From positions 34,430 through 68,270 of the forward strand of contig MGBV01000099.1 of assembly GCA_001788415.1 (NCBI GenBank): a DNA stretch of 33,841 nt, written 5' to 3'. Made by a program: the position numbers and the translations under genes. This stretch comes from Candidatus Rokubacteria bacterium GWC2_70_16 (lineage in GTDB: Bacteria; Methylomirabilota; Methylomirabilia; Rokubacteriales; CSP1-6). The notes below the pieces were generated by a model. The model did not search any database. It was given only the letters and a program-made list of their open reading frames with translations, and was not told the DNA's origin. This document shows positions 1 through 10,851 of the stretch, in pieces. How positions within the stretch are numbered: position 1 is the stretch's first letter; each line of letters starts with the position of its first letter.

Positions 1-284
1 GCTCCCCGCCGGCCGCGGCCCTCAGGCGCCTTGAACCTGGGGCGGGCGCTTCAGGAAATTGATGTGTCAGGCCCATTGACCAGGTGCCGGGCGGGGAAGA
101 ATGTGGGCCAACATACCAGCAGAGTGAATGGGCCCATCAAGTCACCCAGGCCCGGCCCCGGAGGTGGACGGCAGGGCATTATCCCTCCTGACACGAACGT
201 GAACGGCCCCGCAGCCCGATGGAAGTCCTCGCTGCCGGGGATTGCCCGCGCGGCCGACGGGGCTGGCGCGGAGAGGGGGTGGCA

Positions 285-524
285 ATGGCGCAGCTGAGCG
301 CCGACCTGATGCTGGACTGCCGAGGGCTGGCCTGCCCTGTGCCGATCCTGAAGCTGTCCAAGGCCATCACTCAGATTCAGGCGGGGCAGATCATCGAGCT
401 CAGCGCCACCGACAGCGGCTCCCGGGACGACGTTCCTGCCTTCTGCCAGCGCACCGGCAACGCGCTGGTCTCCACCCGGGAGGAGGGCGGCGCCTTCATC
501 TTCTATGTCAGGAAGGGGCCCTGA
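285..524 (+). CDS. tusA: TusA/SirA-family sulfurtransferase
   Basis: LDCRGLACPVP (CPxP motif), 79 aa, ends FYVRKG; ATG at 285 after GAGAGGGGG, inside track ORF 219..524. Confidence 0.92.
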   Translation: MAQLSADLMLDCRGLACPVPILKLSKAITQIQAGQIIELSATDSGSRDDVPAFCQRTGNALVSTREEGGAFIFYVRKGP

Positions 525-545
525 GGGCGCCCCGCGGAGCTACGC

Positions 546-746
546 GTGTACATCGTCGCCATCGATCCTGAAGTCTGCAACGGCAACGGGGAATGCGTCC
601 AGGGATGCCCCGTGGCCATCCTGTCCGAAGAGGGCGAGGGCGACGAGAAGAAATGCGTCGTGAGCGGGGCCATAGCGGATTGCCTCGGCTGCATGGTCTG
701 CGTCGAGGTGTGCCCCACCGGCGCCATCAAGGTGGACGAGGTATAG
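546..746 (+). CDS. Small dicluster ferredoxin (probably 7Fe type)
   Basis: CNGNGECVQGCP and CLGCMVCVEVCP motifs; 66 aa; GGAG upstream of GTG start. Confidence 0.9.
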   Translation: MYIVAIDPEVCNGNGECVQGCPVAILSEEGEGDEKKCVVSGAIADCLGCMVCVEVCPTGAIKVDEV

Positions 747-751
747 GCGCA

Positions 752-2140
752 GTGCATATCCCCCGCCTGGTCATCTCAGCCCCCCATGGCCGGTCGGGCA
801 AGACCACCGTGGCGATAGGGCTGGCAGCCGCCTTCGCCCGGCGGGGGCTGAGGGTCCAGCCCTTCAAGAAGGGGCCGGACTACATCGACCCGAGCTGGCT
901 CGGCGAGGCCGCCGGCCGCCCCTGCCGGAACCTGGATCTCTTCCTGATGGATGCCGACAGGGCCCTGGAGACAGTGGCCTGCGCCTGCCAGTCGGCAGAC
1001 CTGGCCCTCGTCGAGGGCGCTCATGGCCTCTATGACGGGCTCGACGGGGACGGAGCCAATAGCACGGCCCGGCTGGCCAGGCTCCTCCAGGCGCCTGTCG
1101 TGCTCGTCGTGGACGCGACCCGGATGACCCAGAGCGTGGCCGCCCTGGTCCTGGGATTCCGGGACTTCGACCCCGGCGTCCAGCTCGCCGGCGTCATCGC
1201 GAACCAGGTGAGCAGCCCTCGCCACCGCGCCAAGCTGGCCGATGCCCTCGCCCGGCACACGGGCATCCCGCTCCTGGGCGCCCTGCCCCGGGACCCCTCG
1301 CTGTCGATCCCCGACCGCCACCTGGGGCTCGTCCCGAGAGACGAGGACGATGGGCTCCTCCCCGTGGTGGAGCGGGTCCGCGCCGCCGTGGAGGCCTCGG
1401 TGGACGTGGAGGCGCTGCTGGGTCTGGCCCGCGGCGCGCCGGCCCTGCCGGTGGGTCCGCATTGCCCTGAGCGAATGCCTCCCGCCCAGGTGAGGCTCGC
1501 CATCGCCAGAGACCGGGCCTTCACCTTCTACTACATGGAAAACATCGAGGCCCTGCGGGCGGCCGGGGCCGAGCTGGTCTGCCTGGACACGCTCGGGGAC
1601 GGGGCGCTTCCCGACGTCGACGGCCTGTACCTCGGCGGGGGCTTCCCGGAGATGTTCCTCGATGAGCTCGAGGCCAACGAGGCGCTCCGCGCGGACATCC
1701 GCGCAGCGGTTGGCGAGGGTCTGCCGGTCTATGCCGAGTGCGCGGGGCTCATGTACCTGGCTCGGCGCATCGCCTGGCGCGGCCGCTCGGCGGCCATGGT
1801 GGGGGCGCTGCCCTGCGACGTGGAGGTCACGGAAAGGCCCCAGGGGCACGGCTACGTGCGCGCGCGCGTCACGGGCGCGAACCCCTGCTTCCCGGTCGGG
1901 ACTGAGCTCCGCGGCCACGAGTTCCACTACTCCCGAGTGGTGAACCTGGGGCCGGCGCGCTTCGCCTATCGCCTGGAGCGCGGACAGGGCGTGGCCGACG
2001 GGCGGGACGGCCTGGTGGTGGGCAACGTGCTCGCCGCCTATACCCACCTGCACGCCGCCGGCACCGCGGGGTGGGCCGAGAGCCTCGTGGCCCAGGCGCG
2101 CGCCCACCAGGCCCGCCGGCCGGCCAGGGAGGCCCGATGA
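752..2140 (+). CDS. dsrN: Cobyrinate a,c-diamide synthase-like siroheme amidase DsrN
   Basis: GRSGKTT P-loop, FKKGPDYIDP, glutamine amidotransferase YAECAGLMYL and GHEFHYS; dsr operon context; GTG start at 752 inferred. Confidence 0.85.
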   Translation: MHIPRLVISAPHGRSGKTTVAIGLAAAFARRGLRVQPFKKGPDYIDPSWLGEAAGRPCRNLDLFLMDADRALETVACACQSADLALVEGAHGLYDGLDGDGANSTARLARLLQAPVVLVVDATRMTQSVAALVLGFRDFDPGVQLAGVIANQVSSPRHRAKLADALARHTGIPLLGALPRDPSLSIPDRHLGLVPRDEDDGLLPVVERVRAAVEASVDVEALLGLARGAPALPVGPHCPERMPPAQVRLAIARDRAFTFYYMENIEALRAAGAELVCLDTLGDGALPDVDGLYLGGGFPEMFLDELEANEALRADIRAAVGEGLPVYAECAGLMYLARRIAWRGRSAAMVGALPCDVEVTERPQGHGYVRARVTGANPCFPVGTELRGHEFHYSRVVNLGPARFAYRLERGQGVADGRDGLVVGNVLAAYTHLHAAGTAGWAESLVAQARAHQARRPAREAR

Positions 2141-2490
2141 AGATCGGGGTGATGGTCCAGGAGGGCCCGTATCAGCACCAGGCCTCCGACAGCGCCTGGG
2201 AGTTCGTCCAGGCGGCGCTCGCGCGGGGACACGAGGTCGTCGGCGTCTTCTTCTACACCGACGGCGTGCACAACGTGAACCGGTTCATGAACCCGCCGGG
2301 CGAGCGGGTGATCGGCAAGCGGTGGTCCGAGCTGGGGGCCCAGGGGGTGCCGCTGGTGGCGTGCGTCACCGACTCGACGTACCGGGGCGTCACCCAGGAG
2401 CTCGCCGTCGCCAACGTGAAGATCTCCGGGCTGGGCAGCCTGGCCGAGTTCATCCAGCAAGCCGACCGCTTCGTGACGTTCGGCGACTGA
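2137..2490 (+). CDS. dsrE: Sulfurtransferase complex subunit DsrE/TusD
   Basis: GPYQHQASDSA, VFFYTDGV, active-site Cys in LVACV, ISGLGSLAE...DRFVTFG; ATGA overlap with the dsrN stop. Confidence 0.92.
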   Translation: MKIGVMVQEGPYQHQASDSAWEFVQAALARGHEVVGVFFYTDGVHNVNRFMNPPGERVIGKRWSELGAQGVPLVACVTDSTYRGVTQELAVANVKISGLGSLAEFIQQADRFVTFGD

Positions 2491-2504
2491 GAGGGGGGAG
2501 CACA

Positions 2505-2813
2505 ATGAGGGGGGTCGGAGTTCTTGGCGTAACGCTTCTGGTTGTCCTTGCGTCGGTGGGCGTCTCGGCCCAGATGCCGATGGAACACAAAGGCACAATC
2601 TCGAAGATCGACACGAAGGCGAAGACCTTCGCCGTCAAGGACGAGAAGGGCAAGGAGGTGACGATGCACGCGGAGGATGTCAAGGCTTTGGCGGGCCTTC
2701 GGGTGGGTGACAAGGTCGTCGTGAAGATGACCGCGAAGGACGGGAAGAACATGGCCAAGGAGGTGCTGAAGGAAGCTACCGGACGGGCTCCCGCGCCTGG
2801 GTATGGAAAATGA
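2505..2813 (+). CDS. Small secreted Lys-rich beta-barrel (OB-fold-like) protein, possibly ExtJ-like partner of the cytochrome
   Basis: Signal peptide ending VSA; GTISKID...LRVGDKVVV pattern; GAGGGGGGAG RBS; ATG at 2505. Confidence 0.65.
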   Translation: MRGVGVLGVTLLVVLASVGVSAQMPMEHKGTISKIDTKAKTFAVKDEKGKEVTMHAEDVKALAGLRVGDKVVVKMTAKDGKNMAKEVLKEATGRAPAPGYGK

Positions 2814-2841
2814 CACGCTCCGCATTGCGAAGGAGGAAGTC

Positions 2842-4146
2842 ATGACGCCGCAATCCTCCGGCAAGACCGCCTGGGCCAGTGTCTCCTGGATCGGCGGACT
2901 CACCGTCTTGATGCTCGCTCTTCTCTCCCTTCCCGACGTCGCACTGGCTCAACAGAAAGCAAGAACGGTGGACGATCTCGCGAAGATGTACGACGTCGCC
3001 TCATGCAAGCAGTGCCACGCCAAGGTCTACGAGGAGTGGGAGAAGTCAACGCACGCGCGCTCCCTCATCGGAACCGGCCGGACCATCGGGGGATTCCAAG
3101 GAATGATCAGGGCCGGCCTCATGGGGGCATTCACGAAATCGGGGGTGAAGGATGTAGGGGACGTCAAAGTCGAGCACCTCGCGCAGTGTTTCAAGTGCCA
3201 TCTTCCGCAGATTTCGGATGCCACCGATGAGGTCGCGCGGGAACTCGTCAAGGCATACCTGGATGCTGATCGGGCCACGCTCGGCAAGGTCAACGTCAAC
3301 TGTCTCGTGTGCCACAACACGAAGGCGATTCTGCACAAGTGGCAGGATGGGGAGCCCGAGAAGGGCGTCGTCTACGGCTCCAAGGACGGTCCGCATCCCG
3401 ACAAGTACCCGGCGATGAAAAACAGCGTGGTCATGAAAGAGGCGGCGATGTGTGGCCAGTGCCACGGCACGGGGCCGAACTTCGAATTCCCGCAGCCTTC
3501 GCAGTGCGCGACCGCGTACGGGAGCTATCTCCACGCCTATATTCCCGCGGGCGGCACAGAGACGTGTCAGGACTGCCATATGAAGAAGGACGGCAAGGGG
3601 CACCTCATGCCCGCCTACCGCGACCCGGATATGGCGAAGAGGGCCGTGGATGTCGACGTGGAGGCGAGGGGATACAAGTTCCTGCTCAAGGCAGGGGACT
3701 CAATCCCGACAGCCGTGGTGACGGTGAAAATCACGAATAAGGCAGGGCATCGAATCCCTGATGGCTGACCCTCGCCCCAGAGAGCGGTCCTGGACGTGAC
3801 CGCGAAGACAAGCGATGGCAAAGAGATCTTCAGGGATTCAAAGATCTATATGCCGCAAGCCACCAATAGTCGTGGTGATGCGATGGTCTACGGGGCGCAC
3901 TTCAAGATGGGATATACCCGCGACACGAGCCTTCAGCCGCTTCAGACCAGGGTGGAGACCTACGAAATCAAGTTCCCGTATGAAGACGTCGAGAAGGAAA
4001 AGGGCAAACCCAGGGTGAGAGAGATACGGGCCAGGGAGATGGACGTGACGGTTGAGCTGCGGTACCAGCCTGATCCTGCGCCAGGTGAAGCGGGAAAGGA
4101 CAGTTTCGTTCTGCATAAGACGACGAAGAAAGTCAGCATCAAATAG
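2842..4146 (+). CDS. extKL: Periplasmic pentaheme cytochrome c selenoprotein (ExtKL-type), Sec at TGA 3766-3768 (residue 309 of 434)
   Basis: AGGAGG RBS then ATG 2842; signal peptide; five CxxCH (CKQCH, CFKCH, CLVCH, CGQCH, CQDCH); track ORFs 2803..3768 and 3796..4146 share a frame and are separated only by TGA in GHRIPDG*PSP; hairpin downstream. Confidence 0.85.
3784..3803 (+). promoter_or_regulatory. Putative bacterial SECIS element
   Basis: GCGGTC (3784-3789) pairs with GACCGC (3798-3803) around CTGGACGT, starting 15 nt after the in-frame TGA; C3790-G3796 pairing leaves apical loop UGGAC with G at position 2. Confidence 0.7.
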
Positions 4147-4164
4147 AGCGGCTGGGGGTGGTGT

Positions 4165-4587
4165 ATGGAAGATCTGTCGGGGCACGGTGAGCTCCAGGTG
4201 GAGCCCCGCGGGGCTCCACCGAAGAAGGTTTTGGTGCTGATGCGCAAGGCCCCTTATGGAACCCTCTACAACTGGGAGGGCCTGCAGGTGCTCCTCATCA
4301 TGGGGGCCTACAAGATGCAGGGTCTGGTGGACATCGCCGTGGCCTTCGTGGAGGACGGGGTCTTCGCGATCACCCAGGGGCAGGACCCGAGCAGCCTGGG
4401 GATGAAGGCGATCGCGAAGACCTACCCGGCGCTCCCGGACTTCGAGGTGGACCGCTTCTACGTCGACGGGCAGTCACTGGCCGATCGGAGCCTGACCCTG
4501 GATGACCTGGTGATCCAGCCCGAGATCCTCGACGCGGCGGGGATGGCCCGGCTCTTGGAGGAGCAGGACGCGGTCCTGCCGTTCTAG
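4165..4587 (+). CDS. dsrF: Sulfurtransferase complex subunit DsrF/TusC
   Basis: KKVLVLMRKAPYG...EGL, FVEDGVF, SLADRSL, ends DAVLPF; short N-terminal extension. Confidence 0.9.
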   Translation: MEDLSGHGELQVEPRGAPPKKVLVLMRKAPYGTLYNWEGLQVLLIMGAYKMQGLVDIAVAFVEDGVFAITQGQDPSSLGMKAIAKTYPALPDFEVDRFYVDGQSLADRSLTLDDLVIQPEILDAAGMARLLEEQDAVLPF

Positions 4588-4600
4588 AGGAGGCCGAGTG

Positions 4601-4894
4601 ATGCTCTTCACGGTGAACAAGTCGCCTTACCTGCACGGCAACCTGGAAGGCTGCCTGCGGCTGGCCCCGGCCGGGACGCCGCTCGTGCTCTACGAGGACG
4701 GGGTGTACGCGGCGGCGGCGGGCACGCGCGTGGAAGAGCTGATGCGCCAGGCCCTGGCCCGGCACCCCGTCTATGTGCTGGAAGCCGACCTCAGGGCCCG
4801 CGGGCTCGGGCGCCTGATCGAGGGCGTGCGGGTGATCGACTACGCGGGCTTCGTGGAGCTGGTGGAGCAGCATCCCGTGGTGCCCTGGCTGTGA
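4601..4894 (+). CDS. dsrH: Sulfurtransferase complex subunit DsrH/TusB
   Basis: MLFTVNKSP, LEGCLR, LYEDGVYAA, DLRARGL, IDYAGFVELV, ends WL; start is GTG 4598 or ATG 4601. Confidence 0.92.
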   Translation: MLFTVNKSPYLHGNLEGCLRLAPAGTPLVLYEDGVYAAAAGTRVEELMRQALARHPVYVLEADLRARGLGRLIEGVRVIDYAGFVELVEQHPVVPWL

Positions 4895-4930
4895 CAGGGA
4901 CCGGGCGGGCGGCGTAAGAGGAGAACGAGC

Positions 4931-6340
4931 ATGCTGGTGGTGCAGCTGGCGTGTCCCAAGTGCGGCTTCGTCATCGAGCAGTACCCGGCCGAGCAGCTCG
5001 AGACGGACTCCCAGAAGCAGAAGCGCTACCAGTACCTCCGGAAGAAGCAGACGCTCTGCCCGAGCTGCCTCACCCAGACCTCCAAGCTCGAGGAGCGCCG
5101 GGTGGAGGCCCAGGCCGGGGCCGAGGCGAGCGTGCTCGCGGCGGCCCAGGCGCCCGCCGAGGCCGGCGCCCCCGAGGCGGACGAGGGGCCGACGCCATTC
5201 TGCGACGAGCTCGGGCGGGGGCCCTGGCCGAGCCACGTGAGGGAGCTCAGGCGAACCCGCTACCACATGCAGATGTACGAGGAGGCCCTGAGGCTCCGCC
5301 AGACCCAGTGGGGCTTCGGCGGCTACGTCTCGCTGCCGGGGGTGGCCGCCGGGCTTGCGGTGCGCGCCTCGGCCCGCCCCGAGATCGCCAAGGGGGCCAA
5401 CTTCCTCCGGATCCTCCCTCCCGGCGGCAGCTTCTACTCCACCGAGACCCTCGGCAAGGTCTGCGACATCGCCGACCGCTACGCCTATGGCCTCCTGCAT
5501 CTGCACAGCACCGGCGGGAACATCGAGATCCTGGGGATCCCCACCGAGCAGCTCAAGGAGGTGGTCTCCGCCCTGAACGCCCAGGGGCTGGACGTGGGGT
5601 CCACCGGCGATGCCTACCGCAACACCGTGGAATGCGTCGGCCCGGCGCGCTGCGATGCGACCCTGATCGACACGCTCGGGATCCGCGACGCATGGTACCG
5701 GCGCTTCCTGGACGACGTGCAGTTCCCGCGCTTCCCCCACAAGCTCAAGATCAAGATCTCCGGCTGCCCTAACGACTGCACCCGCTCCGTCCAGAAGTCG
5801 TGCATCGCGCTCATCGGCGTCTTCCGCGACGCCCCGAAGATCGACCACGAGCGGCTGGCCGCCTGGGTCGAGGGGGGAGGCGACGCGGCCCACATCGCGC
5901 GGATGTGCCCGCCCCGGGCCCTTGACTGGGACGGGCGGCGGCTTGCGATCGACCAGGAGGCCTGCACCCACTGCATGTACTGCATCAACAAGTGCCCGGC
6001 CATCCGGCCGGGGGACGACCGCGGGGTGGCCGTGCTGGTGGGCGGGAAGCTCCGCGGCAAGTACGGCCCGCTCCTGGGACGGGTGCTGGTCCCCTTCGTT
6101 CCCTTGGCGCCGCCCGAGTACCGCGAGCTGTTCGACCTCCTCCACAGGATCGACGAGGTCTTCGACGAGCACGCCCGCCGGAAGGAGCGCCTGGGCGATT
6201 TCCTCTTCCGGATCGGGATGGACCAGTTCTCCCGGCTCGTGGGGATCGAGCCCTCGGCCCATCAGATGGCCGAGCCCCGGAGCAATGTCTTCTATCACTG
6301 GGCCGCCGGCCCGCCCGGCAGCGACGCGGCGGAGGTGTAG
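4931..6340 (+). CDS. dsrA: Dissimilatory sulfite reductase alpha subunit, copy 1 (divergent/basal type, N-terminal Cys4 extension)
   Basis: TPxCDELxxGPWPS, CVGPARC (CX5C) and GCPNDC (CX3C), FPHKLKIK, ferredoxin domain CTHCMYC, ERLGD, EPRSNVFY. Confidence 0.9.
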   Translation: MLVVQLACPKCGFVIEQYPAEQLETDSQKQKRYQYLRKKQTLCPSCLTQTSKLEERRVEAQAGAEASVLAAAQAPAEAGAPEADEGPTPFCDELGRGPWPSHVRELRRTRYHMQMYEEALRLRQTQWGFGGYVSLPGVAAGLAVRASARPEIAKGANFLRILPPGGSFYSTETLGKVCDIADRYAYGLLHLHSTGGNIEILGIPTEQLKEVVSALNAQGLDVGSTGDAYRNTVECVGPARCDATLIDTLGIRDAWYRRFLDDVQFPRFPHKLKIKISGCPNDCTRSVQKSCIALIGVFRDAPKIDHERLAAWVEGGGDAAHIARMCPPRALDWDGRRLAIDQEACTHCMYCINKCPAIRPGDDRGVAVLVGGKLRGKYGPLLGRVLVPFVPLAPPEYRELFDLLHRIDEVFDEHARRKERLGDFLFRIGMDQFSRLVGIEPSAHQMAEPRSNVFYHWAAGPPGSDAAEV

Positions 6341-6342
6341 CC

Positions 6343-7395
6343 ATGCCCGGAATCGGCGTCGCGCCAATGGAAGCGAATCTCCCTCCCATCGTGAGGCGCA
6401 ATTACGGCGCGTGGGTGTGGCACGAGGTGATCCGGCCCGGCGTCCTGAAGCACGTGTCGAAGAGCGGGGAGGCCTGCTTCACCGTGCGAGCGGGGATGCC
6501 CCCCAACGCCCGGGTGTCGACCGCGCTCGCCCGCCGGATCTGCGAGGTGGCCAACCGGTTCTGCGGCGGCTACCTCCGCATCACCCGGCGCCACAGCCTG
6601 GAGCTGGTGGGGGTGGCCGAGGCCGAGCTCGGCGCGGCGATCGCGGCGCTCCGCGAGATCGGGCTGGCGGTGGGGGGGGCCGATCGCACCTTCCACAACA
6701 TCGTCTGCTGCACGGGCTGGATCCATTGCCAGTTCGCCGCCACCGATGCGCCCGCCATCGCCAAGGCGATCTCGGACGGGCTCTGGGAGGATTTCCAGTC
6801 GGAGGGGTACCCGGCCAAGCTGAAGATCTCCATCGCCGCCTGTGTCAACCAGTGCGGCGAGGGCTCCACTGCCGACATCGGGGTGATCGGCATCCATCGC
6901 GACCTGCCGCGGGTCAACGACGCGGAGGTGGCGAAGTGCGAGGTGCCGCTGATCGTCTCCATCTGCCCCACCGGCGCCATCCGTCCGAAGCCCCCCAAGA
7001 GCGTGCAGGTGGACCCCAGGCGCTGCATCCACTGCGTGGCCTGCGTGGGGCAATGCGTCGGCATGCCCATCGGGGACCCCGAGACCGACGGCGTGGCGAT
7101 CTACGTCGGCGGCAAGGCCGGCAACCAGGGGAGCGGCCCCGCCTTCGGCAAGCTGGCGATCCCGTATCTGCCCAACCGCCCGCCGCGCTGGCCGGAGGTC
7201 GTCCAGGCCGTGACGGGCATCATCGGGGTGTGGACGAAGGGGGCCCGGAGGGACGAGCGCATCGGCGACTGGATCAGCCGGATCGGCTGGGAGCGCTTCT
7301 TCGACAAGACAGGGCTGCCGGTGAGCGACAAGCACCTGGACGGCTATGTCCTCTGGCCCATGGCGGCGCGCACCGGGGTGCGGTTCCGCTGGTAG
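6343..7395 (+). CDS. dsrB: Dissimilatory sulfite reductase beta subunit, copy 1
   Basis: LPPIVRRNYGAW..HE...PGVLKHV, GWIHC, CVNQCG, CIHCVAC, PPRWPE, RIGWERFF; ATG 6343 after GGAGG. Confidence 0.92.
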   Translation: MPGIGVAPMEANLPPIVRRNYGAWVWHEVIRPGVLKHVSKSGEACFTVRAGMPPNARVSTALARRICEVANRFCGGYLRITRRHSLELVGVAEAELGAAIAALREIGLAVGGADRTFHNIVCCTGWIHCQFAATDAPAIAKAISDGLWEDFQSEGYPAKLKISIAACVNQCGEGSTADIGVIGIHRDLPRVNDAEVAKCEVPLIVSICPTGAIRPKPPKSVQVDPRRCIHCVACVGQCVGMPIGDPETDGVAIYVGGKAGNQGSGPAFGKLAIPYLPNRPPRWPEVVQAVTGIIGVWTKGARRDERIGDWISRIGWERFFDKTGLPVSDKHLDGYVLWPMAARTGVRFRW

Positions 7396-7443: not shown

Positions 7444-8856
7444 ATGCTGATGGTGCAGCTGGCCTGTCCCAGGTGCGGCTTCGTCATCGAGCAGTACGGG
7501 GCCGCCCAGCTGGAGGCGGACACCCAGAAGCAGAAGCGCTACCAGTACCTCAGGAAGAAGCAGACCCTCTGCCCGAGCTGCCTCAGCCAAACCGCCAAGC
7601 TCGAGGAGCGCCGGGTGGAGGTGGAGGCTGGGCCCCAGGCCGAGCTCATGGCCGAGGCCGAGGCGCCGCCCGAGGCGGTACCTGCGGGCGAGGCCGTCGC
7701 GCCGACGCCGCTATGCGACGAGCTGGAGCGCGGGCCCTGGCCCAGCCACGTGACCGAGCTCAAGCAGACGCGGTACCACATGCAGATGTACGAGGAGGGC
7801 CTCCGCCAGAAGCGAACCCAGTGGGGGTTCGGCGGTTACACCTCGATTCCCGGTGTGGCCTCCGGGATCCTCATGCGGGCCTCGGCCCGGCCCGACATCG
7901 CCAAGGGCGCCAACCTGGTCCGCGCCTTCTGTCCCAGCGGGACGTTCTACTCCACGCAGACCTTCCGGGCCCTCTGCGACGTGGCGGACCGCCACGGCTA
8001 CGGCATCCTGCACCTCCATGCCACGACCTGCGACATCGAGGTCCTGGGGGTGCCCAAGGAGGAGCTCCGGGCGACGGTGGACGAGCTGGTGGCGGCCGGC
8101 CTGGACGTGGGCTCCACCGGGGATGCCTACCGCAACTGCCAGGAGTGCATCGGCCCCTTGCGCTGCGAGATGGTCCTGGTGGACTCGGTGGCCATGCGCC
8201 AGGCCTACTTCACGCGCTTCCTGGACGACGTCCAGTACCCGCGCTTCCCCCACAAGATCAAGTTCAAGCTCTCGGGGTGCCCCAACGACTGCACGCGCTC
8301 GCAGCAGAAGGGGGACATCGCCATCGTCGGGGTGTTCCGGGATCCGCCGACGATCGACGCGGCCCGGCTCGAGGGCTGGGTCGCTGGGGGCGGGGACATC
8401 GCCCACATCGTCAGGATGTGCCCGACGCGAGCCATGGAGTGGGACGGCCGGCGGCTGGCCATCGACGCCGACGGCTGCGTCCGCTGCATGTACTGCATCA
8501 ACAAGTGCCCGGCCGTCCGCCCGGGGGGCGATCGCGGCGTGGCCGTCCTGGCCGGCGGCAAGATGCGGGGCAAGTATGGGCCCCTCCAGCCCTTCGTCAT
8601 CGCGCCATTCGTCCCCGCCGTCCCGCCGGACTTCACGGAGGTCTTCGACCTCTGCGCCAAGATCACCGATGTCTACGACGAGCACGCGCGCCGCAAGGAG
8701 CGGCTGGGGGACTTCATCTACCGCACGGGGATCGACCAGTTCTGCCGCCTGGTCGGCGTGCCGTCGGCCCCTCAGCAGATGGTCTCTCCCCGCATCAATC
8801 CCTTCTACCACTGGACGCCCGAAGAGCTGCAGGCCTCCCGGAAGGAGGCCGACTGA
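7444..8856 (+). CDS. dsrA: Dissimilatory sulfite reductase alpha subunit, copy 2
   Basis: Collinear paralog of 4931..6340; CIGPLRC and GCPNDC, FPHKIKFK, CVRCMYC. Confidence 0.9.
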   Translation: MLMVQLACPRCGFVIEQYGAAQLEADTQKQKRYQYLRKKQTLCPSCLSQTAKLEERRVEVEAGPQAELMAEAEAPPEAVPAGEAVAPTPLCDELERGPWPSHVTELKQTRYHMQMYEEGLRQKRTQWGFGGYTSIPGVASGILMRASARPDIAKGANLVRAFCPSGTFYSTQTFRALCDVADRHGYGILHLHATTCDIEVLGVPKEELRATVDELVAAGLDVGSTGDAYRNCQECIGPLRCEMVLVDSVAMRQAYFTRFLDDVQYPRFPHKIKFKLSGCPNDCTRSQQKGDIAIVGVFRDPPTIDAARLEGWVAGGGDIAHIVRMCPTRAMEWDGRRLAIDADGCVRCMYCINKCPAVRPGGDRGVAVLAGGKMRGKYGPLQPFVIAPFVPAVPPDFTEVFDLCAKITDVYDEHARRKERLGDFIYRTGIDQFCRLVGVPSAPQQMVSPRINPFYHWTPEELQASRKEAD

Positions 8857-9908
8857 TGCCGGGCGTCGGCCTCCCCCCGCTCGAACGGAACCTGCCGCCC
8901 ATCGTCCTCCGCAACTACGGCAAGTGGCTGGACCACGAAGAGCCGAGACCGGGCGTCCTCAAGCATGTGGCCGAGAGCGGCGAGGCATGCTACACCGTGC
9001 GCGCCGGGATGCCGACGAATGCGCGGGTCTCCACCACGCTCGCCCGCAAGATCGCGGACCTCGCGGACGACTTCGCCGGCGGGCACCTGCGCCTGACCCG
9101 GCGCCACAGCCTGGAGCTGGTCGGAGTGGACCCGGCCCGGATCGACGAGCTGATCGAGCGGCTCCGGGGTCTCGGGCTGCCCGTGGGCGGCACCGGCCGG
9201 ACATTCCGCAACACGGTGTCCTGCACCGGCTGGATCCACTGCCAGTTCGCTGCCACCGATGCCCCGGCGGTGGCCAAGGCCATCTCCGACGAGCTGTACG
9301 AGGACTTCCTCACCGAGCGCTACCCGGCCAAGCTCAAGATCTCCATCTCCGGCTGCGTGAACCAGTGCGGCGAGGGGTCCACCGCCGACATCGGGATCGT
9401 CGGCATCCACCGGGACCTGCCCCGGGTCATCGACGAGGAGGTGGCCCGCTGCGAGATCCCGCTGATCGTCTCGGTCTGCCCCACCGGCGCCATCAGGCCC
9501 AAGCCGCCGAAGAGCGTCCAGGTGGATCCCGAGCGCTGCATCCACTGCGTGGCCTGCGCCGCGCCGTGCCAGGGGATGCAGATCGGCGACCCCGACACCG
9601 ACGGCGTCGCGGTCGTGGTTGGCGGCAAGGCGGGCAACTCGGGGAACGGCCCGGCCTTCGCCAAGTTCGTGATCCCCTACCTCCCGAACAGCCCGCCGCG
9701 CTGGCCCGAGGTCACGCGGGCGGTGAGGCAGATCGTGGAGGTGTGGGTGAAGGGAGCCCGGCGGGACGAGCGGATCGGCGACTGGATCGCGCGGATCGGC
9801 TGGGACAAGTTCTTCGAGAAGGCCGGGCTGCCGATGAGCGACAAGCTCCTCGACGGCTACGTCCTCTGGCCCATGTCGGCCCGTACCGGGGTGCGGTTCC
9901 ACTGGTAG
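8856..9908 (+). CDS. dsrB: Dissimilatory sulfite reductase beta subunit, copy 2
   Basis: TGATG overlap with dsrA2; NYGKW, CTGWIHC, GCVNQCG, PPRWPE, RIGWDKFF. Confidence 0.92.
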   Translation: MPGVGLPPLERNLPPIVLRNYGKWLDHEEPRPGVLKHVAESGEACYTVRAGMPTNARVSTTLARKIADLADDFAGGHLRLTRRHSLELVGVDPARIDELIERLRGLGLPVGGTGRTFRNTVSCTGWIHCQFAATDAPAVAKAISDELYEDFLTERYPAKLKISISGCVNQCGEGSTADIGIVGIHRDLPRVIDEEVARCEIPLIVSVCPTGAIRPKPPKSVQVDPERCIHCVACAAPCQGMQIGDPDTDGVAVVVGGKAGNSGNGPAFAKFVIPYLPNSPPRWPEVTRAVRQIVEVWVKGARRDERIGDWIARIGWDKFFEKAGLPMSDKLLDGYVLWPMSARTGVRFHW

Positions 9909-9941: not shown

Positions 9942-10259
9942 ATGGCGACGGTAGAGCTCGAAGGCAAGACGATGGAGCTGGACGAGGATGGGTTCCTGCA
10001 GAATCCGGATCTCTGGTCCGAGACGGTGGCCCAGTACTTCGCCGACCAGGAGGGGCTGGGGCAGCTCACGGACGAGCACTGGAAGGTGGTGAAGATGATC
10101 CGCGGCTACTACCTGCAGTTCGGCGTCGCCCCCATGATCCGCAAGGTCGTCAAGGACACCGGCTTCGACCTCAAGTACATCTACCAGCTCTTCCCCTCGG
10201 GGCCGGCCAAGGGGGCCTGCAAGGTCGCCGGGCTCCCCAAGCCCACGGGCTGCGTGTAG
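9942..10259 (+). CDS. dsrC: Sulfur carrier DsrC with both C-terminal cysteines
   Basis: DEDGFL, LTDEHW, LFPSGPAKGACKVAGLPKPTGCV (CX10C). Confidence 0.97.
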   Translation: MATVELEGKTMELDEDGFLQNPDLWSETVAQYFADQEGLGQLTDEHWKVVKMIRGYYLQFGVAPMIRKVVKDTGFDLKYIYQLFPSGPAKGACKVAGLPKPTGCV

Positions 10260-10275: not shown

Positions 10276-10851
10276 GTGACGCTGCCCGCGGGCGCCCGCG
10301 CGGCGGGCGGGCCAGGTCTCGAGGCGCTGGCGGCACGGCGGAGCGCCATTGCCGGCCGGTGGCTGGCGCTGACGCTCGAGGGCTACCCGGCCCCCACCGC
10401 GCGCCTGCTGGCGCGCGAGACGGACCCCTTCCGCAACCCCGTCGGGCACACCCTCAGGCAGGCGCTGTCTGGCCTCGCGGAGGAGCTTGTCGGGGCCATG
10501 GACCCCGCCAGGGTCGCCGCCCTCCTGGACAGCGTCGTGAGGATCCGCGCCGTCCAGGACGTGAGCGCGAAGGAGGCGGTGAGCTTCGTGTTCCTGGCCA
10601 GGCAGGCCCTTCGCGAAGAGATCGACAGCGGCGGGGGACTGCCGGCCGGAGACGGGCTGGCGGCCGTGGAGGCGCGGGTCGACGAGATGGCGCTCTCGGC
10701 CTTCGACCTGTTCATGCGCTGCCGCGAGCAGATCCACGCGATCCGGGCCGACGAGGCCCGACGCCGGACGGCTCTCCTGGACCGCATCCGCGAGCGGGCC
10801 GGCCGGCCCGGGAGCGAGCCCGCCGGGGCGGACCCGGGAACTGCGCCGTGA
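10276..10851 (+). CDS. dsrT: DsrT (RsbRD N-terminal-domain protein)
   Basis: W...YP, DPFRNPVG, VRIRAVQD, AVSFVF, AFDLFMRCRE; directly upstream of dsrM. Confidence 0.88.
   Translation: MTLPAGARAAGGPGLEALAARRSAIAGRWLALTLEGYPAPTARLLARETDPFRNPVGHTLRQALSGLAEELVGAMDPARVAALLDSVVRIRAVQDVSAKEAVSFVFLARQALREEIDSGGGLPAGDGLAAVEARVDEMALSAFDLFMRCREQIHAIRADEARRRTALLDRIRERAGRPGSEPAGADPGTAP

Follow-up and report, generated by a model that had tools for sequence, protein, structure and literature searches.

An ExtKL/MccSep-type pentahaem cytochrome c selenoprotein gene predicted within a dsr operon of Candidatus Rokubacteria

The interrupted reading frame and its predicted product

The DNA analysed here (the window) is a stretch of 33,841 nucleotides (nt) of contig MGBV01000099.1 from Candidatus Rokubacteria bacterium GWC2_70_16. 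It carries a dsr operon in which two open reading frames (ORFs) of the + strand, 2803..3768 and 3796..4146, lie between dsrE and dsrF. They share a common frame and their sole separator is a TGA at 3766-3768, as an earlier note on this DNA had claimed. Positions 2842-4146 are read here, with a probability of about 85%, as a single gene that is inserted within the dsr operon and that would code for a pentahaem cytochrome c of the ExtKL/MccSep type, a selenoprotein of the periplasm. The gene, mccSep (extKL), has the following features:

2831..2836, + strand: Shine-Dalgarno sequence AGGAGG, 5 nt ahead of ATG 2842 (direct sequence reading)
2842..4146, + strand: mccSep/extKL, predicted pentahaem cytochrome c selenoprotein of 434 amino acids (aa) (NF040886, PDB 9wt8/9wt9, residue check)
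3766..3768, + strand: UGA read as selenocysteine (Sec, U), U309 (codon column in relatives; aligned to U325 of MccSep)
3784..3803, + strand: putative apical hairpin of a Sec insertion sequence (SECIS), 6-bp stem 3784-3789/3798-3803, 8-nt loop CUGGACGU

Translation from ATG 2842 to 4146 with the TGA as U yields a 434-aa product whose peptide across the codon is NKAGHRIPDG-U-PSPQRAVLDVTAK. It carries five haem motifs (CKQCH 55, CFKCH 116, CLVCH 154, CGQCH 204, CQDCH 242) and an additional conserved Cys, C222 in PSQCAT (nt 3505-3507), a motif check that agrees with the joined protein described in the earlier note. The N-terminus, judged by eye, is hydrophobic and ends in ...VALA-QQ. Between 2851 and 4200, on both sides of the TGA, the frame with a high GC content at third codon positions (GC3) does not change. 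Note that TGA is an ordinary stop in this locus, where it ends 11 of the 18 genes called and is the commonest stop codon.

The read-through protein matches the NCBIfam profile NF040886 ("multiheme c-type cytochrome (seleno)protein ExtKL") with 521.8 bits against a cut-off of 250. The match joins residues 34-434 to profile positions 26-423 of 423 and covers both sides of the TGA, while Pfam returns generic multihaem domains only. The search of solved structures found five entries of Geobacter MccSep (9wt8, 9wt9, 9wta, 9wtb, 9wtc) with E values of about 1e-120. For 9wt8 and 9wt9 (1.1e-120 and 1.9e-120) residues 36-433 of the query align with positions 39-445 of the chain, and the alignment to 9wt9 runs through its C-terminal domain. 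The homology to ExtKL that was expected on either side of the TGA is present in both comparisons.

GSU2937-2936 (extKL) of G. sulfurreducens is reported to be one periplasmic homotetrameric pentahaem selenoprotein, MccSep, in a Science Advances paper of 2026 that describes it as a polysulfide reductase (PMC13510729). According to this report MccSep reduces polysulfide and, less well, selenite in vitro, is required for S0 respiration, and has its UGA read through as demonstrated by Western blot and mass spectrometry; its haem 2 is liganded by H122 and C239, and activity depends on U325, R83 and K372 (PMC13510729). A 2026 review counts ExtKL/NF040886 among the known prokaryotic selenoproteins (PMC13188914). 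The residue equivalences between the window protein and MccSep are R80/R83, H120/H122, C222/C239, U309/U325 and K355/K372, with R80 in GTGRT, H120 in CFKCH and K355 in HFKMG. All published active-site residues of MccSep are therefore present in the predicted protein: H120 of the haem-2 CxxCH, the distal C222, Sec309 on the DG-U-P loop, R80 and K355. Membership in the ExtKL/MccSep family is supported jointly by the profile score, the five CxxCH motifs, the Sec column and the pairs C222/H120 and R80/K355.

The codon was compared across 160 related loci, 80 from species-representative genomes and 80 from metagenomes. At the aligned column the genome loci have TGA in 78 cases and TGC in one (L065), with L038 ending before the column; the metagenome loci have TGA in 79 cases, and L131 ends before it. 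Protein similarity extends beyond the codon in all 157 loci with TGA. The database protein P0007 (397 aa) has Cys at the Sec column and reads ...HRIPDGCPSQQR.... Relatives with Sec or Cys at this position, which the earlier note had listed as a test, were thus found. The locus L065 (7843-7890), the sole TGC (Cys) form among the 160, sits on a long branch (0.84) and has mostly lost the hairpin sequence, as expected because Sec decoding is no longer needed with TGC.

Most database entries stop at the codon. Of the 120 best protein matches, 119 are 267-312 aa long, and each of the five short entries that were fetched stops at ...HRIPDG, exactly at the TGA; the short forms are therefore gene-caller truncations. 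The gene had been described as hidden from standard annotation. This holds for the length of the entries, but not for the family as such, since a curated NCBI (seleno)protein model exists and two truncated entries are already named ExtKL.

The TGA of the window is reproduced in independent assemblies. Contigs from two runs of other studies cross it with 0 differences (X3 record 9, over 3220-3947; X4 record 18, over 3220-3803), and no alternative letter at 3766-3768 occurred in any run examined. The RNA runs X19 and X20 gave small shares only. A 258-nt contig of the RNA library X20 crosses the TGA and the stem, both intact, with 10 differences, and so comes from a relative; X19 gave three short pieces (two of 33 nt) of 90-99% likeness that continue into unlike sequence, and nothing is drawn from it. 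The predicted recoding of UGA 3766-3768 to selenocysteine is directly supported by these comparisons.

The hairpin 3' of the UGA was found as the earlier note had described it, and it is conserved in relatives in its pairing, its compensatory changes and its third-codon sites. The spacing between the UGA and its stem is 15 nt, and the stem forms in the minimum-energy fold. In an alignment of 48 columns and 80 sequences (73 distinct), 89.7% of the cells of the named stem are paired versus 22.6-59.4% after a shift of the partner columns by 1-3. Three of the six pairs show compensatory changes (G-C to A-U twice, C-G to U-A; 12 cells), a level reached by 0/500 shuffles, with the caveat that related sequences may outscore shuffles even without structure. 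Conservation at third codon positions inside the hairpin is 96% at 3786, 90% at 3789, 100% at 3792, 89% at 3798 and 84% at 3801. The exception is the loop position 3795 (47%). The third codon positions just outside (3771, 3774, 3777, 3804) are 33-41% conserved, and this contrast spans genomes of 41-73% GC. The hairpin 3784-3803 is likely the signal for Sec insertion.

Two variations of the hairpin were observed. The pair 3785/3802 (alignment pair 20-37) is C-G in the window and U-G or U-A in the other 72 of the 73 distinct sequences; the C-G pair costs a Leu/Val-to-Ala change, R-A-V instead of R-L/V-V. Geobacter-type genes (L034, L037, L048, L053, L066, L069, L074) lack the GGUC/GACC stem and have a shifted CCGAC...GUCGG hairpin (alignment columns 13-33), so that no fewer than two SECIS designs occupy these codons within the family.

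The Sec machinery that the earlier note proposed to look for was found in full in the genome bin. The genes selA (573 bits) and selB (372 bits) are adjacent on contig C150, which also carries tRNA-Sec (selC; C150:4854-4951, found by ARAGORN), and selD (350 bits) lies on C95. The three protein genes score over their profile cut-offs. The contigs that hold these genes have a GC content of 71-73%, consistent with the bin. The selD gene (G000 C95:5991-6929, L007) itself holds one in-frame TGA; it probably codes for a Sec-containing SelD, which would be a second selenoprotein of the genome. ARAGORN also reports a second tRNA-SeC candidate of 82 nt (C180:2934-3015), which may be spurious or stem from a contaminant.

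The dsr operon and its dsrE-dsrF spacer

The genes around mccSep are, in order:

219..524, + strand: tusA-like (TusA 55.3 bits, under the 78 cut-off)
593..2140, + strand: dsrN-like cobyrinic acid a,c-diamide synthase homologue (profile scan)
2137..2490, + strand: dsrE (TusD/DsrE; TIGR03012 96.8 bits, cut-off 89.25); its TGA stop 2488-2490 is the left edge of the insertion site
2495..4178, + strand: two-gene insert of about 1.7 kb (empty site in G002; lower GC)
2505..2813, + strand: predicted small secreted protein of 102 aa with hydrophobic N-terminus and no Cys (translation)
4165..4587, + strand: dsrF (TusC/DsrF; TIGR03010 93.9 bits, just below the 94.15 cut-off); right edge of the insertion site
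4598..4894, + strand: dsrH (TIGR03011 87.6 bits, cut-off 49.2)
4931-6340 and about 6340-7395, + strand: dsrA1 and dsrB1 (TIGR02064, TIGR02066)
7444-8856 and about 8856-9908, + strand: dsrA2 and dsrB2 (TIGR02064, TIGR02066)
9942-10259, + strand: dsrC (profile scan)
10276-10851, + strand: DsrT-like RsbRD_N protein (profile scan)
up to 15832, + strand: dsrM, dsrK, dsrJ, dsrO, dsrP (profile scan)
after dsrMKJOP: Rrf2 regulator and sirohaem synthesis genes, then Lon, DnaJ, DnaK, MazG and PilB/T/C

The identity of the operon follows from the presence of dsrAB, dsrC, dsrEFH and dsrMKJOP side by side on one strand. DsrB, DsrC, DsrE, DsrH and DsrM/K/J/O/P score over their cut-offs, DsrA below (326 and 333 versus 392.85). 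DsrF is 91% identical to that of G002 and 89% to that of G003, two genomes of the same genus. The DnaK of the window has its nearest named relatives in Candidatus Rokubacteria (97%) and Methylomirabilota (87-88%), and the named homologues of DsrB2 are from Chloroflexota (60-73%).

The dsrAB genes are in tandem, with 67% protein identity between A1 and A2 and 75% between B1 and B2, while G002 and G003 have one pair each. The single G003 pair is orthologous to dsrA2B2 (95% at the nt level) and about 80% identical, also in nt, to dsrA1B1. The extra pair is present in L107, a metagenome contig that carries the mccSep insert, and absent in G002 and G003, which lack the insert; this co-occurrence is not independent evidence because the genomes are kin. 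Both DsrA proteins are extended at the N-terminus by about 90 aa (4931-5200, 7444-7710; the TIGR02064 match starts at residue 92), and the extension holds two CxxC pairs (ACPKCG ... CPSCL) of zinc-ribbon appearance. The genome also codes for AprA (960 bits). A search of the genome gave no match for dsrD, which is not evidence of absence since no control genome gave one either and the bin is 87% complete.

The insert stands out by a GC content of 59.5% versus 72% and 70% in the flanks, and by a GC3 of 0.71-0.84 versus 0.9-0.99. Its boundaries are defined by comparison within the genus. In G002 dsrE and dsrF are adjacent: window position 2494 corresponds to L105 9183 and 4179 to L105 9175, with 7 nt between. 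Homology with both G002 and G003 stops at window 2494-2497. G003 carries about 2.5 kb of other genes in the same spacer (L106 6826-9346), coding for a secreted protein with a C-terminal CxxCH (no Pfam match), a Cox11/CtaG-like and class I cytochrome c fusion, and SCO1/SenC. Contigs of X3 and X4 share dsrE to 2491-2495 and then run into four other sequences; the junction is therefore polymorphic in nature. Inspection by eye revealed neither direct repeats nor mobile-element scars at the junctions. Other contigs bridge the dsrE/insert junction (X3 record 5, 2465-3074) and the insert/dsrF junction (X3 record 12, 3967-4250; X4 record 20, 4081-4250). To judge from these genomes, the dsrE-dsrF spacer appears to be a place where periplasmic redox genes are inserted repeatedly.

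The small ORF upstream of mccSep has sub-threshold Pfam matches only (DUF1344/DUF5666), and its assignment to a CusF-like Atlas cluster (0.90) is a mere lead. It is kept upstream of mccSep in L107 and L131 with 81-82% identity. In other lineages tblastn finds it beside extKL weakly or not at all; matches lie about 3 kb upstream in L051 and L061 and just downstream (53%) in L160. The Geobacter ext cluster has reportedly been described with the rhodanese ExtH, the porin ExtI and ExtJ. Profile scans of the locus, which did not include a comparison of the small ORF with ExtJ, turned up no neighbours of the extHIJ type. The two inserted genes are set off from dsrE, from each other and from dsrF by 14, 28 and 18 nt, and a crude scan of the + strand from 500 to 5200 gave no terminator-like site. 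We infer that the insert genes are co-transcribed with the dsr operon.

The same arrangement recurs in metagenomes. The separately assembled L107 has the order tusA-dsrN-dsrE-small-extKL-dsrF-dsrH-dsrA1B1-dsrA2B2; in L108, L109 and L126 extKL is followed by dsrF, and L131 shows dsrE-small-extKL. These four to five related contigs code for ExtKL proteins 79-100% identical to that of the window (the 100% protein identity of L108 may reflect the same population). Together with the window, these contigs are the sole dsr-embedded context among the 160 loci. A true homologue of mccSep is found in 0/3 same-genus genomes and in 1/40 relatives, G018 of the same family, with 40% identity. This locus (L092, G018 C447:931-1977, minus strand; 72.5% GC) codes for an ExtKL of the other major clade with a TGA and a PDG-U-LWT motif, and its apical hairpin sequence is the same as that of the window. 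These features suggest a separate acquisition.

A FastTree phylogeny was computed from 135 read-through proteins, leaving out rows below 330 aa, 11 duplicates and the minus-strand L092. The window, L108, L107 and L109 form a clade (support 93) within a group of 31 rows, in which all 12 named members are Nitrospirota. We infer that mccSep was acquired horizontally, as it branches among Nitrospirota-type ExtKL genes.

Proposed function and alternative explanations

By analogy with Geobacter, the product of mccSep would be a periplasmic enzyme that cleaves the S-S bonds of polysulfide with electrons delivered along its haem chain. Sec309 would attack polysulfide, a Se-S-S(Cys222) intermediate would form at haem 2, and this intermediate would be reduced by electrons passed over the five haems, as proposed for the Geobacter enzyme. 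The periplasmic Sec/haem polysulfide enzyme suggested in the earlier note thus has a counterpart of demonstrated function in the Geobacter orthologue (PMC13510729). The polysulfide chemistry may be coupled to the cytoplasmic TusA-DsrEFH-DsrC-DsrAB / DsrMKJOP pathway encoded around the gene.

A more specific proposal is that the dsr operon is a self-contained module for disproportionation of elemental sulfur or polysulfide, with MccSep as its periplasmic electron sink, and that the spacer is a docking site for redox cassettes. MccSep would be fed by DsrMKJOP (through DsrJ, the periplasmic subunit with a His/Cys-ligated haem) or by the quinone pool, with electrons from the oxidation of cytoplasmic sulfane sulfur by TusA-DsrEFH-DsrC-DsrAB. 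The additional pair dsrA1B1 would belong to this adaptation too. The dsrE-dsrF spacer would take MccSep here and the copper/cytochrome c cassette in G003. Many named carrier loci are from Desulfocapsa, Desulfobulbus, Desulfurivibrio and Dissulfurispiraceae, taxa that include known sulfur disproportionators. The proposal is speculative and rather unlikely.

A number of points weigh against the reading of a Dsr-linked selenoprotein gene. Selenium incorporation, protein expression and activity of this gene are predicted from sequence only. Folding of 3760-3830 is unexceptional when taken alone (z = -1.33; 19/200 shuffles fold equally well) and Rfam at its gathering threshold finds 0 families in the whole window, hence no curated SECIS family; the significance of the hairpin therefore rests on the comparison with relatives. 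The RNA-library contig of X20 is possibly DNA carried in the library and is no proof of transcription. Co-transcription with the operon is deduced from the short gaps and the crude terminator scan only, and functional coupling to Dsr from gene position only. None of the 80 species-representative loci of other lineages (73 of which extend 500 nt or more downstream) shows dsrE, F, H, A, B or C near extKL, so that Dsr coupling is not a family trait. MccSep reduces selenite too (PMC13510729). The genome was binned from a metagenome (309 contigs; completeness 87%, contamination 5.3%), and its Sec genes lie on other contigs than mccSep. The root of the tree is a midpoint for drawing only, and the SH-like (Shimodaira-Hasegawa-like) support of 93 for the 31-row clade is under the tool's 95 mark, so that the donor lineage is tentative. 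A locus from a 64%-GC "uncultured bacterium" (L011 731-2044) belongs to the same sub-clade and has an unrelated 622-aa ORF downstream and no dsr gene nearby.

Two explanations deny the selenoprotein itself. If the TGA were a true stop, the locus would code for a 308-aa truncated pentahaem cytochrome and a 116-aa protein starting at GTG 3796, or would be a decaying pseudogene. ORF calling with table 11 yields exactly these two ORFs, 119/120 of the best database entries are deposited as about 300 aa, and TGA is the commonest stop in the locus. This explanation is nevertheless very improbable. In each of the 157 loci with a TGA the similarity runs on past this codon, the C-terminal part can be aligned to the Ig-like domain in the MccSep structure, and Cys replaces the TGA in L065 and P0007. 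The coding GC3 carries on in frame, the synonymous sites of the hairpin are frozen, the genome has a complete Sec machinery, and read-through was seen in Geobacter by Western blot and mass spectrometry (PMC13510729). That the TGA is an artefact of sequencing, assembly or binning (a TGC/TGG error, or a contig chimeric between Nitrospirota and Rokubacteria) is still harder to credit. The fragmented bin with its 5.3% contamination and the deviating GC of the insert would fit such an origin; it is countered by the 0 differences over 3220-3947 and 3220-3803 in contigs of two other studies, by the X3 and X4 contigs that span both insert junctions, and by the same gene order in the separately assembled L107.

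The other two explanations accept a Sec-containing MccSep and differ on what it does. The enzyme could be independent of Dsr, a stand-alone reductase of S0/polysulfide or of selenite whose gene sits in a permissive spacer. The 0/80 other-lineage loci near dsr imply that the enzyme works without Dsr elsewhere, the varied contents of the spacer (the unrelated G003 cargo, and the X3/X4 contigs that diverge at 2491-2495) suggest a spot tolerant of insertion, and selenite reduction in vitro (PMC13510729) would suit such a role. Against it, the arrangement is kept where ExtKL is only 79-91% identical (L107, L109, L126, L131) and has thus persisted in a tightly packed operon as species diverged, and the cargo in both lineages consists of periplasmic redox proteins, not random genes. 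We hold independence from Dsr to be a serious but somewhat unlikely alternative. The enzyme could also work in the oxidative direction, from periplasmic sulfide to polysulfide, and so feed sulfane sulfur to oxidation by TusA-DsrEFH-DsrC-DsrAB. The Dsr system of Candidatus Rokubacteria, with dsrEFH and without dsrD, has been interpreted as sulfur-oxidising (PMC6018805); in the present genome dsrD was not found, with the limits given above, and aprA is present. The authors of the MccSep paper liken its chemistry to the reverse of TsdA/SoxAX, with their His/Cys-ligated haems (PMC13510729). The reductive reaction is, however, the only one demonstrated for any family member, and no periplasmic electron acceptor was identified here, where SQR, Fcc and Sox were not searched for; oxidation is judged unlikely. 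The preferred reading is that of a Sec-containing MccSep whose gene became part of the dsr operon.

Novelty and comparison with known systems

Published work already covers the ExtKL/MccSep family together with its Sec codon, SECIS and function. What appears new is the host lineage (Rokubacteria) and the dsr operon context. The literature search found no account of ExtKL/MccSep inside a dsr operon or in Rokubacteria, within a scope that leaves supplementary tables aside, which may list such cases. The earlier note knew of no dsr-embedded copy, and on this point the search agrees. The novelty does not extend to the selenoprotein family, which was known. In the accessible text of the MccSep paper "dsr" occurs solely in the reference list; its supplement of 637 homologues (data S1, S2) might hold Methylomirabilota entries (PMC13510729).

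The finding places MccSep in Rokubacteria/Methylomirabilota, beyond the two phyla said to hold most of the family. The locus is a cleanly documented case of probable transfer for which both empty-site and filled-site genomes are at hand. Gene callers still truncate the ExtKL family nearly everywhere, and metabolic reconstructions of sulfur-cycling bins therefore miss MccSep. The main value of the locus is as a lead on which sulfur chemistry the Rokubacteria Dsr serves: a co-transcribed polysulfide enzyme would be a testable hint on the direction of this Dsr, pointing to polysulfide/S0 as substrate and possibly to disproportionation.

The window protein and Geobacter MccSep align over their full length and have in common the five CxxCH motifs, the residues of the His/Cys-ligated haem 2 and the D-G-U-P Sec motif, and both genes carry a hairpin after the UGA. 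The hydrophobic N-terminus of the window protein may be an export signal like that of MccSep. The identity between the proteins is about 50%. The hairpin of the window is of the Nitrospirota type, with a GGUC/GACC stem, whereas the Geobacter-type subgroup has the shifted CCGAC/GUCGG stem. The window gene is flanked by dsr genes and its host belongs to Rokubacteria, not to Desulfobacterota.

The nearest named relatives are the ExtKL genes of Nitrospirota (Thermodesulfovibrionia-type; L013, L016, L017), with 73-77% identity. Their hairpin sequence is that of the window, and so is their U-P-S-x-Q/N-R motif. In contrast to the window, their genomes have 41-51% GC and the gene stands alone, with no small ORF upstream and no dsr neighbours. 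The window copy is partly shifted in composition, to 59% GC.

The dsr operon described for Candidatus Rokubacteria resembles that of the window in having dsrEFH with deep-branching dsrAB, dsrT and dsrMKJOP, with apr present and dsrD not found (PMC6018805). The text of that account, figure and supplements aside, makes no mention of a cytochrome or selenoprotein gene in the dsrE-dsrF spacer, or of dsrAB in two pairs (PMC6018805). A precedent for pairing cytoplasmic Dsr with a periplasmic reductase is reported for S0 disproportionation in Desulfurivibrio dismutans, where cytoplasmic Dsr and periplasmic PsrABC exchange electrons via the membrane (PMC12142623). The reductase of that organism is a molybdoenzyme encoded elsewhere (PMC12142623), whereas here a haem/Sec enzyme is encoded within the dsr operon itself and would be coupled to it.

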